From positions 1-33,614 of the forward strand of contig JAHIRI010000076.1 in the NCBI GenBank assembly GCA_018818855.1: a stretch of 33,614 nt of DNA, written 5' to 3'. Below are positions 1,329 to 13,905 of the stretch, piece after piece. Within the stretch, counting starts at the first letter, position 1. Each line of letters begins with the position of its first letter. The notes below the pieces were generated by a model. That model saw only the letters and a list, made by a program, of their open reading frames with translations, ran no database searches and was not told the origin of the DNA. The DNA comes from Patescibacteria group bacterium (GTDB lineage: Bacteria > Patescibacteriota > Patescibacteriia > XYB2-FULL-38-15). Made by a program: the position numbers and the translations under genes.

Positions 1329-1392
1329 TATATCAAATTAAGACTAAAACAGCCATTAACGACTAAATCCGTTATTTTTTAATTTTATTTAT

Positions 1393-1465
1393 GACCCGGT
1401 AGCTCAGCTGGTAGAGCAACTGCCTTTTAAGCAGTGGGTCCTGGGTTCGAGCCCCAGCCGGGTCA
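1393..1465 (+). tRNA. tRNA-Lys (anticodon UUU)
   Basis: 73-nt cloverleaf. Acceptor GACCCGG/CCGGGTC, D arm GCTC/GAGC, anticodon stem ACTGC/GCAGT with loop CTTTTAA, T arm CTGGG-TTCGAGC-CCCAG, discriminator A. CCA is not encoded. Confidence 0.93.
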
Positions 1466-1489
1466 TTTTTTATTTGTTTAATTATTTTC

Positions 1490-1517
1490 AAAACCATCAA
1501 GTCGATGGTTTTTTGTT
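1490..1517 (+). terminator. Rho-independent terminator after tRNA-Lys
   Basis: Stem aaaaccatc (1490-1498) / gatggtttt (1504-1512), followed by a T-rich tail. Confidence 0.55.
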
Positions 1518-1521
1518 TATC

Positions 1522-1550
1522 TTGACAAAATCTATATATTATCCTAAGAT
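1522..1550 (+). promoter_or_regulatory. Sigma70-type promoter of the GGDEF gene
   Basis: TTGACA (1522-1527), 17-nt spacer, TAAGAT (1545-1550). GAGGAGG SD at 1573-1579, 5 nt before the ATG at 1585. Confidence 0.6.
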
Positions 1551-1584
1551 TAAAAGTTGCAAAAGACAACACGAGGAGGTAATC

Positions 1585-2217
1585 ATGTCGTCTTCGCTGG
1601 AAAACCTTTCGGCCGCGCAACTGCGGATTGCTCTTGCCGCGGCGTACGCGGGGATTGCGGCGCAGGAAGTGGAGATCAGAAGTCTCCGGGGAGCGATGGC
1701 TCTGCTTTGGGACGAAGGAGAACAATACAAGACCGAGGGGCGGACAGATCACCTGACGGGAGCACTGAACCGCAAAGGTGTCGAGATTGCTCTTGCCGAG
1801 GAAATGTCCTTCGCTCAACGCTTCGAGTCCCCTCTCAGCGTGATCGCGATTGATGTCGATCAGTTCAAAGAAATCAACGACACGTACGGCCATCCCGCCG
1901 GAGACGCCGTCCTGCAGAAACTCGTCAAGCGTTTTCGCAAGGTTCTTCGCCCCTACGACCTGATCGGACGGATAGGAGGAGATGAATTTATCATTATCCT
2001 TCGGGGAGCGACTCCTGAAAACGCGGCTTTGGTCGCCCAACGTCTCTGCGCGGCCGTAGCGCTAAATTCCTTTTCTTTCGACGGATTTACTTTTCCGGTG
2101 ACGATCAGCCTAGGCGTAGATGAGGCAGGGGGGAAGCAGCCCCTCGCGGCGGCGGACAAGGCACTCTACGAGGCCAAGCGCGGAGGCCGCAATCGCGTAG
2201 TCACAAACAAGCGCTAG
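1585..2217 (+). CDS. Diguanylate cyclase: GGDEF domain with a short N-terminal helical segment, no sensor domain
   Basis: Internal ATG of ORF 1474-2217, preceded by a strong SD. Motifs DHLTGALNRKG, IDVDQFKEINDTYGHPAGD, RIGGDEFIIIL, ADKALYEAKRGGRNRV. An RxxD (RPYD) lies 5 residues before GGDEF (I-site). Markedly G+C-rich compared with its flanks. Confidence 0.9.
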   Translation: MSSSLENLSAAQLRIALAAAYAGIAAQEVEIRSLRGAMALLWDEGEQYKTEGRTDHLTGALNRKGVEIALAEEMSFAQRFESPLSVIAIDVDQFKEINDTYGHPAGDAVLQKLVKRFRKVLRPYDLIGRIGGDEFIIILRGATPENAALVAQRLCAAVALNSFSFDGFTFPVTISLGVDEAGGKQPLAAADKALYEAKRGGRNRVVTNKR

Positions 2218-11706: not shown

Positions 11707-12153
11707 CTATTTTTTCTCCACCACCCTCACCAACAATTTCGCCTCCAACCCTCCTCCTAATTTTACCACAATTTCATGTCCGCCGACATCTTTAATGGGT
11801 TTGTCCATTTTGAGCTGGCCAGACTCCACCGCAAAACCCTTTCTTTTCAATTCACGCGCCACGTCCTCTACTCCAACTGATCCATAAAGTTTTCCGCCCT
11901 CGCCGACTTTTGCCGCGATTTTTATTTCCACGCCAGAAAGTTCTTTAGCCATTTTCTTCATCCTTTTTCCTTCGTGAATAACTTTTTCCGCCGCCGCTTT
12001 TGTCTTTGCCTCAATTGCCGACACTACCCCGACCGTAGCCAGCCGCGCCAACCCTTTTGGTATCAAAAAATTTCGGGCGTAGCCTTCGGCCACCTCTTTT
12101 GTCTCTCCTACTTTTCCAACTTTATCCACATTTTTTAAAAGGATAACTTTCAT
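11707..12153 (-). CDS. rplI: 50S ribosomal protein L9
   Basis: Start taken at MKVILLKNVDKVGKVGETKEVAEGYARNFLIPKGLA (internal Met of ORF 11707-12186). Confidence 0.9.
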   Translation of the reverse strand: MKVILLKNVDKVGKVGETKEVAEGYARNFLIPKGLARLATVGVVSAIEAKTKAAAEKVIHEGKRMKKMAKELSGVEIKIAAKVGEGGKLYGSVGVEDVARELKRKGFAVESGQLKMDKPIKDVGGHEIVVKLGGGLEAKLLVRVVEKK

Positions 12154-12339
12154 ATCAATATAGTATAACAGAAAACAAACTAACAAAATAACTAATTTAC
12201 CTTTCCCCTATTTTCTTTTGACGTTTATTTTAAATTTCTATTATTTTACCACTTCCTAAATTATCGCACAAACCCACTCTTCATCTTCTCGTCATAAAAA
12301 AGGATTATAATAAATTGTGGAAATTTAAATACAAATATT

Positions 12340-12612
12340 ATGGACCAAGATTTGTGCTATTGCGGAGAACGAGCCACTCGCGGTGAGGGGTTGCTTCGAA
12401 ATACAATGGCCTGCCAGTCTTGCGGAAACGAATGGGAAATTACCCATTGCTGGAATTGCGGCGAACAAATTGATGGAAGATTTTCTTCAACCTGCCGCGC
12501 CTGCGACTGGTATCTTTGTGCTAAATGCGGCGCCCATGAGCCGGACTGCACTCACACCTTAAACGCAAGAAGAGTCAGTAGTGCCGCTAATTTCGTCAGT
12601 ACAACAGTTTAA
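12340..12612 (+). CDS. Cys-rich zinc-finger mini-protein (N-terminal zinc ribbon plus ZZ-type-like finger)
   Basis: 90 aa with CxC, four CxxC pairs and extra Cys/His. The segment HCWNCGEQIDGRFSSTCRACDWYLCAKCGAHEPDCTH resembles the ZZ zinc-finger pattern. A terminator follows. Confidence 0.6.
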   Translation: MDQDLCYCGERATRGEGLLRNTMACQSCGNEWEITHCWNCGEQIDGRFSSTCRACDWYLCAKCGAHEPDCTHTLNARRVSSAANFVSTTV

Positions 12613-12626
12613 TTTTTCAAAAAATG

Positions 12627-12653
12627 AAAAAGAGGCAATGCGGCCTCTTTTTG
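12627..12653. terminator. Bidirectional rho-independent terminator
   Basis: Stem agaggc (12631-12636) / gcctct (12643-12648), flanked by an A-run and a T-run. Lies between the convergent zinc-finger ORF and the S41 protease gene. Confidence 0.6.
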
Positions 12654-12657
12654 TATT

Positions 12658-13905
12658 TTATTTCGCCTGATTATTTATAATTTCAACTGCTTTATCCATC
12701 TGCGGATCACGGTTAGCGTTGTAATCTTCTTCAGTTAATTTTATTTCTATATCCGGGGCAATTCCCTCTTTATCAATATGCCTGCCTTTTGGCGTCAGCC
12801 ATTCGGCCACGGTAATTTTTACCGCCGATCCGTCGGTGAGCGGTTCCAAAGTTTGCACCGAGCCTTTGCCAAAAGTTTTTTCTCCAACGAGCGTTGCCTT
12901 ACCATAGTCTTGGAGCGCTCCGGCGACAATTTCCGAAGCCGAGGCAGAACCCTGATTTACCAAAACCACGGTTTTCAAATTGGCAAATCTCGCAAGACCG
13001 CTCGAACGTTCCTCGTTTTTTACTCCATCATCCATCTGCTCAACCACAACAATATCATTTTCTACCCATTCCCCGGCCACCTCCACCGCCGTATTCAAAA
13101 ATCCTCCGGGATTATTTCTTAAATCTAAAATCAAACCTTTGGGATTTTTCGCGAGGAGTTCTATCGCGGCCTGATTAAATCTTCTTTCTGTGTCTTCGTT
13201 AAAATGATTTATTTCAATGTAGGCAATATCATCTTTCATCTCCCATTTTACGCTTGCCACCTCAATCTTATCGCGCGTAATTTTAATATCACTTGTTTTT
13301 TCCCAACCTTCCCGCCAAATTGTTAGAGTGACGTCTGTCCCTCTTTCCCCGCGGATAATACTCACGGCATAATCCAACGACATATCGGTTGTGTCCTCGC
13401 CGTCAATAGATAAAATTTTATCACCCGCCATAAGTCCGGCTCGAGAAGCCGGCGTTTCGGGTAATGGCGCAATAATTGTTAGTTGATTATTTTTTATGCC
13501 AAGCTCAGCGCCGATTCCGGAAAAAGTCCCTTCCAATTCTTGTTTAAAATCTGATGCGGTCTTTGGATCAAAAAAAACAGAATACGGATCATCAAGCGAA
13601 GAAACAATTCCCGAAAGAGCTCCATAGAAAAGTTGTGTGTCAGCCACGGGCTGATGAACATAATTGGTTTTTGCTAAATTCCAAACTTCCCAAAAAAGAT
13701 TAAAATCAACATCCTTGGATAAATAATCCGGAATTTTTTCTGTGTTTTTAACTTCTCCGCCGTAAAATTCTTTTTCCGCTCCGGCTTTTCCCTGACGCGC
13801 TCCGAGCGCCATGCCGCCCAAAAATCCGCCGAGCACTAAAACTATTACTACATAAAATGCAGTATATTTAAAAACAAACTTGTACTTTTCTAATTTTATA
13901 TCCAT
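12658..13905 (-). CDS. ctpA: Carboxy-terminal processing protease (peptidase S41, with PDZ domain)
   Basis: 415 aa with an N-terminal TM segment. PDZ region GDKILSIDGEDT, catalytic contexts NQGSASASEIVAGALQD and TFGKGSVQ. Confidence 0.9.
   Translation of the reverse strand: MDIKLEKYKFVFKYTAFYVVIVLVLGGFLGGMALGARQGKAGAEKEFYGGEVKNTEKIPDYLSKDVDFNLFWEVWNLAKTNYVHQPVADTQLFYGALSGIVSSLDDPYSVFFDPKTASDFKQELEGTFSGIGAELGIKNNQLTIIAPLPETPASRAGLMAGDKILSIDGEDTTDMSLDYAVSIIRGERGTDVTLTIWREGWEKTSDIKITRDKIEVASVKWEMKDDIAYIEINHFNEDTERRFNQAAIELLAKNPKGLILDLRNNPGGFLNTAVEVAGEWVENDIVVVEQMDDGVKNEERSSGLARFANLKTVVLVNQGSASASEIVAGALQDYGKATLVGEKTFGKGSVQTLEPLTDGSAVKITVAEWLTPKGRHIDKEGIAPDIEIKLTEEDYNANRDPQMDKAVEIINNQAK

Follow-up and report, generated by a model that had tools for sequence, protein, structure and literature searches.

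The ZZ finger, as described in the excerpts of two papers that we draw on, carries the ligand signature CCCCCCHH, that is one C4 and one C2H2 site (PMC4506424, PMC11390915), and bacterial ZZ domains are known as ZZ-histone fusions, mainly in Proteobacteria (PMC11390915, likewise in excerpt). The present study concerns a 90-amino-acid (aa) open reading frame (ORF) from the genome of a Patescibacteria group bacterium (GenBank assembly GCA_018818855.1). It lies in a stretch of 33,614 nucleotides of contig JAHIRI010000076.1, hereafter the window, and an earlier note, made from the letters of the window, had proposed that it encodes a eukaryote-like ZZ-type zinc finger preceded by a possible extra zinc ribbon. 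We find that the ORF is a real gene under strong purifying selection, that its product is not a ZZ domain, and that it belongs to a rare, unnamed domain family without a Pfam or NCBIfam model. On balance, we consider the product to be probably a small cytoplasmic metalloprotein with three predicted zinc sites, akin to C1/DC1 fingers, which would serve as a docking module.

The translation carries Cys at positions 6, 8, 25, 28, 37, 40, 52, 55, 60, 63 and 70 and His at positions 36, 66 and 72, just as the earlier note had read them from the ORF at 12340-12612. The protein divides into an N-terminal module, a core with eight potential ligands and a C-terminal tail (Table 1). More specifically, the core reads H36-C37-W38-x-C40 ... 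C52-x2-C55-x-W57-Y58-x-C60-x2-C63-x2-H66-x3-C70.

This pattern is kept in relatives to an extent that exceeds chance. All 11 Cys are retained in the orthologs, the core is about 90% conserved among them, and the sequence after Cys70 diverges freely. The ratio of nonsynonymous to synonymous substitution (dN/dS, Nei-Gojobori, codons 1-71) is 0.014-0.065 in the 16 of 28 pairs for which it can be estimated; in the remaining 12 pairs synonymous sites are saturated and the proportion of nonsynonymous differences (pN) is 0.030-0.091. The ORF is intact in 8 of the 9 other genomes of the same family, which makes 9 of 41 related genomes when the source genome (G000) is counted, and a query with the ORF in 31 genomes of other families of the class finds it in none (0/31). 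The source genome is about 0.75 Mb in size (86 contigs, 97.7% complete), and the family profile matches it once, meaning that the gene is single copy. Because purifying selection is very strong in a genome this small, the protein probably does something that the cell needs.

Searches of large collections place the protein in a family of its own. At E ≤ 1e-3, phmmer retrieves 53 proteins from 1.84 billion cluster representatives, and a profile search of a 5.8-billion-sequence collection adds 27 matches, all from very small clusters, named only 'hypothetical protein' and without a precomputed Pfam domain. A strict regular expression for the eight ligands matches 28 of 55 proteins, and several more show the pattern with altered spacing by eye. 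The family alignment comprises 54 rows, and its consensus is Y-x-N-H-C-W-x-C-x3-I-D-S-R-x4-C-x2-C-G-W-Y-I-C-x2-C-G-A-C-x3-C. C37, C40, C52, C55, C60 and C63 are invariant (54/54), and W38 and W57 are each found in 50 rows. The family can be defined by the pattern H-C-W-x-C ... I-D-[SG]-R ... C-x2-C-x-W-Y-x-C-x2-C-x2-[C/H]-x3-C. Its ligand signature is CCCCCC[C/H]C: the seventh position (66) is occupied by Cys in 45 rows and by His in the other 9, which include the clade of the window protein (the window clade), and the eighth ligand is Cys70, present in 53 rows. In some members, for example P0014, P0020, P0035, P0037 and the L020 protein, the gap before this last Cys varies between 3 and 8 residues.

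The family is sparse. Of 301 genomes sampled from the phylum, 10 (counting G000) have it, two of them as tandem paralogs, and outside the phylum one Eubacteriales metagenome-assembled genome (MAG) carries a member; many other members are proteins known from metagenomes alone. A degenerate DNA pattern search returns 7 loci, namely 5 orthologs, the Eubacteriales member and 1 chance match in Bifidobacterium, and a motif scan of viral contigs returns 12 loci, of which 4 are real members (3 distinct proteins) and 8 are out-of-frame matches to Cys/Trp/Gly low-complexity sequence. A literature search on small zinc-finger proteins in Patescibacteria found nothing.

The core appears, from sequence comparison, to be closer to eukaryotic C1/DC1-type fingers than to ZZ. 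One library match, P0010, is an evidently eukaryotic, Asn-rich protein of 833 aa with three C1_2 domains (53.9 bits, cut-off 26). It is retrieved by phmmer with E 1.7e-7 against 1.8 billion proteins, and in BLASTP residues 36-63 of the window protein are 36-43% identical to its four repeats (E 1e-8 to 6e-6), with the His, the Trp, all three CxxC pairs and the [IL]-D-G hairpin in common. Alignment of the family profile with P0010 by hhalign gives a probability of 70.7% (E 3.8e-5) over 30 columns. Against PDB sequences, the best match of the family profile is a chain of ARHGEF2 (E 3.4e-4), which we take to be a C1 domain; FYVE, rabphilin and cellulose-synthase fingers follow.

Compared with DC1/C1 fingers, the core has the three CxxC pairs at the same spacing, the preceding His, the [IL]-D-G hairpin after the first pair and the Trp that follows the second, four residues ahead of the third, and PKC C1 and Arabidopsis DC1 domains are among its best fold matches. 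However, the His-rich N-terminal half of DC1 is absent: P0010 has H-x-H-P-L-Y about 15 residues before its first CxxC, the window protein has no such His, and the alignments to P0010 stop at H36. In addition, the final two ligands sit near one another at the C terminus of the core ([C/H]66-x3-C70), the protein has a distinct C4 ribbon ahead of its core, and the C1/DC1 hidden Markov models (HMMs) do not match the ORF. Furthermore, the window family is small and bacterial or phage-borne, whereas the DC1 papers listed in our literature search (8 of 29) all concern plants. With similarity to DC1 on one side and no HMM match and a missing His-rich half on the other, we therefore speak of resemblance, possibly distant kinship, and not of membership. 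FYVE and RING fingers share features with the core too. In the family profile, the first six Cys line up in register with RUFY1 FYVE and rabphilin, and in a Pfam scan of 32 family members FYVE and IBR are matched weakly in 10 and 9 of them, respectively. On the other hand, all these matches are below cut-off, no basic R(R/K)HHCR-type motif is seen by eye, and the last ligand pair follows immediately and not after a further strand. Of the original proposal of a eukaryote-like cross-brace finger, what stands is that the core looks like a eukaryote-type binuclear cross-brace finger; its kind appears to be that of C1/DC1, RING and FYVE and not ZZ.

The AlphaFold2 (AF2) model of the whole protein has a predicted local distance difference test score (pLDDT) of 79.4, with 82-93 over residues 1-70 and less than 50 for residues 78-90, and contains hairpins at 11-14/22-25 and 31-36/43-45. 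A core-only model (residues 30-75, built with the 54-row alignment) reaches a pLDDT of 85. In Foldseek searches, neither the full-length nor the core-only model has a PDB match at E ≤ 0.001 (0 matches), and BFVD likewise gives 0 matches at E ≤ 0.001. Among the weak matches of the core, the lowest root-mean-square deviations (rmsd) are those to HOIP RING1 (1.9 Å over 31 columns) and CARP2 FYVE (2.1 Å over 30 columns), followed by Arabidopsis DC1 (2.2 Å over 31 columns, 35% identity), a PHD finger (2.8 Å over 31 columns) and PKC C1 (3.0-3.4 Å over 34-37 columns). Ribbon, rubredoxin and aS21 chains fit at 4.2-5.7 Å.

Taken together, the ligand pattern and the confident models argue for three tetrahedral zinc sites, each predicted and probable, over about 70 residues. 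The first would be an N-terminal C4 ribbon, with C6, C8, C25 and C28 holding one zinc. The orthologs retain these four Cys, as do many distant members, some of which have them as CxxC...CxxC; the module is present in many standalone members, missing in others and absent from the membrane-anchored subfamily described below. The earlier suggestion that the CxC...CxxC preceding the core forms an extra ribbon is borne out in so far as the motif is conserved and is modelled as a beta-hairpin (strands 11-14 and 22-25, pLDDT 83-93); the module appears to behave as such a ribbon and may well bind metal. The other two sites would lie cross-braced in the core, C37/C40 pairing with C60/C63 and C52/C55 with H66/C70, with the variable tail of 20 residues predicted to be disordered. 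The alternative for the core is a row of sequential ribbons. We infer that a mononuclear site would put a C-x2-C-x2-[C/H] run under steric strain. Because of this strain at C60/C63/66 and the low-rmsd fits to cross-brace fingers, the cross-brace is favoured, and we hold it to be perhaps the somewhat more probable of the two arrangements.

A stronger version of the kinship would make the core an undescribed prokaryotic/phage family truly homologous to eukaryotic C1/DC1 fingers, in which a compact C-terminal ligand pair replaces the N-terminal His and which is deployed as standalone proteins, at the cell surface and in RNA-handling fusions. We offer it tentatively, as a possibility on the unlikely side.

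Several observations weigh against a C1/DC1-like docking module. C1_2/DC1 (PF03107, cut-off 26 bits) has no match on the protein and 0 matches at E ≤ 10 in the genome, and C1_1 (PF00130, 26.5 bits) has only two weak genome matches (E 0.45 and 2.0), both on other contigs and none at the ORF. The similarity to DC1 covers the three CxxC pairs only, where Cys content can inflate scores. For the full-length model, the top weak Foldseek ranks are held by tandem-ribbon chains of the aS21/HVO_2753 type (6skf_Az), TFS4, Rpa12 and YfgJ, with E 0.45 or worse and template modelling (TM) scores of 0.26-0.42. The gene neighbourhoods of distant members show no common context. Fusions of the core to S1/helicase and cold-shock-like domains hint at RNA binding, and in the lipoprotein-type subfamily, with its core predicted outside the cytoplasm, disulfides rather than zinc are possible.

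The domain first proposed for this ORF, a true ZZ finger (PF00569) after a ribbon, would be a prokaryotic module for protein-protein interaction or for reading N-terminal peptides. Like ZZ, the core is a predicted binuclear finger of eight ligands in CxxC pairs, in which a hairpin (I-D-G-R-F) follows the first pair and an aromatic residue the second, and among the Foldseek matches of the core is the p300 ZZ structure 6ds6 (TMq 0.51, TMt 0.46). Bacterial ZZ domains exist (PMC11390915, in excerpt), and the two folds probably share the same broad RING-like treble-clef class (PMC4506424, in excerpt). However, PF00569 is not among the 11 weak families that hmmscan of the protein against Pfam gives at E ≤ 10 (these include RZ-type at E 0.016, DZR at 0.057, FYVE at 0.072 and B-box at 0.11, all far below their cut-offs). 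A six-frame search of the genome with PF00569 (gathering score 21.4 bits) scores 8 candidates, of which 0 reach E ≤ 10, and the same search gives weak sub-threshold matches in 11 of 14 control genomes. ZZ is also absent among the families listed (25 of 46) from the Pfam scan of the 32 members, none of the 21 PDB chains that the family profile matches at E ≤ 10 is named ZZ, and 6ds6 is a weak, non-significant match at rank 28 (E 4.3, rmsd 4.1 Å). In ZZ fingers, five residues separate the second and third CxxC pairs (C-P-D-Y-D-L-C), compared with four here (C-x-W-Y-x-C). The two His on which the ZZ assignment leaned fare no better: Cys predominates at position 66, and position 72 is unconserved (H/N/R/K among close orthologs, most commonly R18/K7/H6/E5 in the family rows). 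The ZZ C2H2 site is therefore missing and CCCCCCHH is not the signature of this family, which leaves the ZZ account very improbable. Of the refutation that the earlier note had set out, the first half, no significant ZZ match, holds; the second does not, in that no common bacterial zinc-ribbon family explains the cysteine spacing, and the ORF is conserved in relatives. A rival account would have three sequential ribbons or knuckles (C6/C8/C25/C28, C37/C40/C52/C55 and C60/C63/H66/C70) in a DUF1610/HVO_2753/aS21-like, RNA- or ribosome-binding protein. Such proteins are similarly small and have at least four knuckles of the CxxC type; in the JGI annotation, the close homolog P0002 is a 'predicted RNA-binding Zn-ribbon protein involved in translation (DUF1610 family)', and the gene adjoins rplI. 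The same account can draw on the Foldseek ranks of the full-length model, on weak matches to NF011481 (E 0.047), PF07754 (E 0.53) and DZR (E 0.057, and weak in 19/32 members, best E 4.3e-4), on an archaeal Zn-ribbon chain (6sw9_C, E 0.11) and human immunodeficiency virus (HIV) nucleocapsid knuckles (E 0.0065), and on the fused proteins in which the core accompanies cold-shock-like domains or five S1 domains and an SF1 helicase. Against this, the scores stay well under the cut-offs (10.6 vs 33.2 bits for PF07754, 13.7 vs 61 for NF011481 and 14 vs 27.3 for DZR, PF12773), PF07754 is matched weakly and below cut-off in 5/32 members, and even the cold-shock matches are under the Pfam cut-off. Moreover, the Foldseek matches are as poor as given above, and the core fits these chains at 4.2-5.0 Å vs 1.9-2.8 Å for cross-brace fingers. 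Charge differs as well: aS21 and nucleocapsid proteins are basic, and the core of the window clade is acidic (net -2 to -5, with a pI of about 5 in the window protein) and bacterial. We consider the ribbon account unlikely, and the DUF1610 label on P0002 appears from these scores to be wrong.

A small iron-sulfur (Fe-S) redox or sensor protein, for example with a [4Fe-4S] cluster bound by a ferredoxin-type C-x2-C-x2-C-x3-C, is less probable again. C-x2-C-x2-C-x3-C is the classical spacing of [4Fe-4S] motifs, and the last four ligands read C-x2-C-G-x-C-x3-C in 45/54 members; Fer4_8, Fer4_6, Fer4_4 and Fer4_9 are matched weakly in 1-2/32 members (best E 0.013), and Fe-S enzymes are found at E 1-9 over profile positions 59-86. 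Yet the third of these Cys is His in the window clade (9/54 rows), which hence does not have the all-Cys motif, and replacement of Cys by His is commonplace in zinc sites but uncommon in ferredoxin motifs. The variable spacing to the last Cys in several members speaks against a cluster too, as do the few and weak Fer4 matches and the many members that have a Sec/lipoprotein-type signal with no twin-arginine motif by eye. Lastly, a chance intergenic ORF that is no gene at all could be imagined, as the ORF is short, lacks a clear Shine-Dalgarno sequence by eye and has no RNA contig found over it. The substitution pattern, with dN/dS of 0.014-0.065 and synonymous sites near saturation, already refutes this, and the frame intact in relatives, the relatives among 1.8 billion cluster representatives, the conserved -10 box and terminator and the lack of an Rfam family at the locus add to the refutation; its probability is close to nil.

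If the protein is the C1/DC1-like metalloprotein that we favour, the zinc sites would stabilise a scaffold whose conserved surface docks a macromolecular partner. The domain contexts of the core are promiscuous, which we infer would mark it as a structural or binding module. It occurs in standalone proteins of 70-140 aa, as tandem cores (P0017 and L037) and together with GY[DN] repeats (L013, P0048, P0068). In P0026, a protein of 2074 aa, the core lies between five S1 domains and a superfamily 1 (SF1; AAA_11/AAA_12) helicase, and in P0019 and P0042 it follows an N-terminal cold-shock-like domain (25.1 and 22.5 bits, Pfam cut-off 27). A further architecture consists of a lipoprotein-type signal peptide, the core, a Ser-rich linker, a C-terminal membrane anchor and then basic residues. 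This subfamily comprises P0015, P0022, P0029, P0031, P0052, P0055-P0066 and L030/L033 207-698, and two of the membrane-anchored copies sit on predicted viral contigs. Because of the signal and the anchor, its core is predicted to lie outside the cytoplasm.

The net charge of the core is -4 in the window protein and spans -6 to +11 over the family. For the acidic standalone form, the partner would more likely be a protein than a nucleic acid. Given the acidic window core and the extracytoplasmic core of a sizeable subfamily, a protein-docking adaptor is therefore favoured among the functions. A zinc-stabilised adaptor for a protein partner is accordingly our leading candidate, held at rather less than an even chance; RNA or ribosome binding is a less probable function, and an Fe-S role is improbable.

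In the reduced genomes of Patescibacteria, annotation routinely overlooks small cysteine-rich proteins or gives them wrong labels. If the C1/DC1 kinship is true, this class of fingers, known for the most part from plant proteins and eukaryotic signalling, would gain a prokaryotic relative, and at 46-70 residues it would also make a compact target for structural work. For the present, the outcome is modest: the ZZ call is corrected and a rare new family of probable zinc fingers is delineated.

The gene and its signals are listed in Table 1.

Table 1. Features of the zinc-finger-like gene and its surroundings, in window coordinates.
Feature	Position	Strand	Basis or predicted nature
Protein-coding gene, 90 aa plus stop, ATG start	12340..12612	+	ORF, orthologs, dN/dS; single copy in genome
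N-terminal module, residues 6-28 (C6-x-C8 ... C25-x2-C28)	12355..12423	+	predicted C4 zinc ribbon
Eight-ligand core, residues 36-70	12445..12549	+	predicted binuclear zinc site
Variable C-terminal tail, residues 71-90	12550..12609	+	predicted disordered
TATAAT -10-like box, 34 nt 5' of ATG	12306..12311	+	read from sequence; kept in orthologs
Bidirectional intrinsic-terminator-like hairpin, common to the convergent S41 gene	12627..12652	both	10 pairs, T-runs on both strands

The upstream neighbour is divergent and encodes ribosomal protein L9 (rplI, both Pfam domains found), and the downstream neighbour is convergent and encodes an S41 peptidase with a PDZ domain; beyond these lie CTP synthase (pyrG) and an EPSP_synthase-family (MurA-type) gene. 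In 7 of 8 loci the genes follow the order pyrG-rplI-ORF-S41, the exception being L003 with another gene upstream. Of the 8 orthologous loci, 6 have an exact TATAAT at -34 to -37 relative to the ATG, and L002 and L004 have TATACT there by eye. The box of the window is probably the ORF's own promoter, judged from its sequence and position; the consensus promoter scan does not list it because it has no good -35. A hairpin with a T-run is located 3' of the gene in all 8 orthologous loci (minimum free energy -8.2 to -23.0 kcal/mol). The neighbours, the hairpin and the TATAAT agree with the earlier description of the ORF as its own unit between divergent rplI and convergent S41 with a terminator. 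The somewhat elevated G+C that had also been reported is not borne out: a 270-nt window over the ORF has 0.452, adjacent coding windows have 0.40-0.49, and only the AT-rich intergenic spacers are lower (0.34-0.36).

Several orthologs (L002, L003, L006, L008) have an in-frame GTG eight codons 5' of the ATG, reading M-[VG]-[KN]-[FL]-K-I-K-x-M.... In the window, the upstream GTG within 12317-12339 is out of frame, and the conserved ATG is therefore taken as the start. The leader before the ATG is short and AT-rich, and inspection by eye suggests no obvious Shine-Dalgarno sequence. A search of Rfam gives no family at the ORF locus. Metatranscriptome X13 contributes a single 318-nt contig that covers only rplI (11832-12146, 22 differences) and none over the ORF, which makes it uninformative on expression; X20 has no contig on the ORF and says nothing either way. 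DNA contigs of a related strain (run X4) align at 11742-12115 and 12346-12744: about 30 differences are listed across rplI and, among those listed, none between 12346 and 12744 (ORF and terminator), a contrast that is unverified as 11 further differences are unlisted.

The host is a groundwater, Falkowbacteria-like lineage of Patescibacteria; Falkowbacteria fall within the Parcubacteria group. Two public MAG records with orthologs (L010 and L014) are titled 'uncultured Gammaproteobacteria', one of them an 886-kb chromosome. Their proteins are identical to the orthologs of L004 and L002, and the Gammaproteobacteria label is therefore doubtful. The other ortholog-bearing public records are titled Candidatus Falkowbacteria or Patescibacteria group. 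A phage origin of the gene was considered and rejected: the look-alikes by ESM Atlas features are hypothetical proteins of Uroviricota that score 0.88-0.89 and miss the threshold of 0.9, a tblastn search of 50,697 phage records gives none at E ≤ 1e-3, and the BFVD Foldseek search was empty (0 at E ≤ 0.001).

In two genomes of another Patescibacteria family, two members of the domain family lie within about 600 bp of each other as tandem paralogs (L018/L027 in G090, L019/L026 in G115), and one tandem paralog has a shortened spacing and is without the Trp residues. Elsewhere in the window, a tRNA gene (Rfam RF00005, 72.2 bits) is located at 1393-1465 (+), under the mechanically called ORFs 1372..2040 (-) and 1474..2217 (+); where the tRNA lies, at least the ORF 1372..2040 (-) is for this reason probably not a gene.

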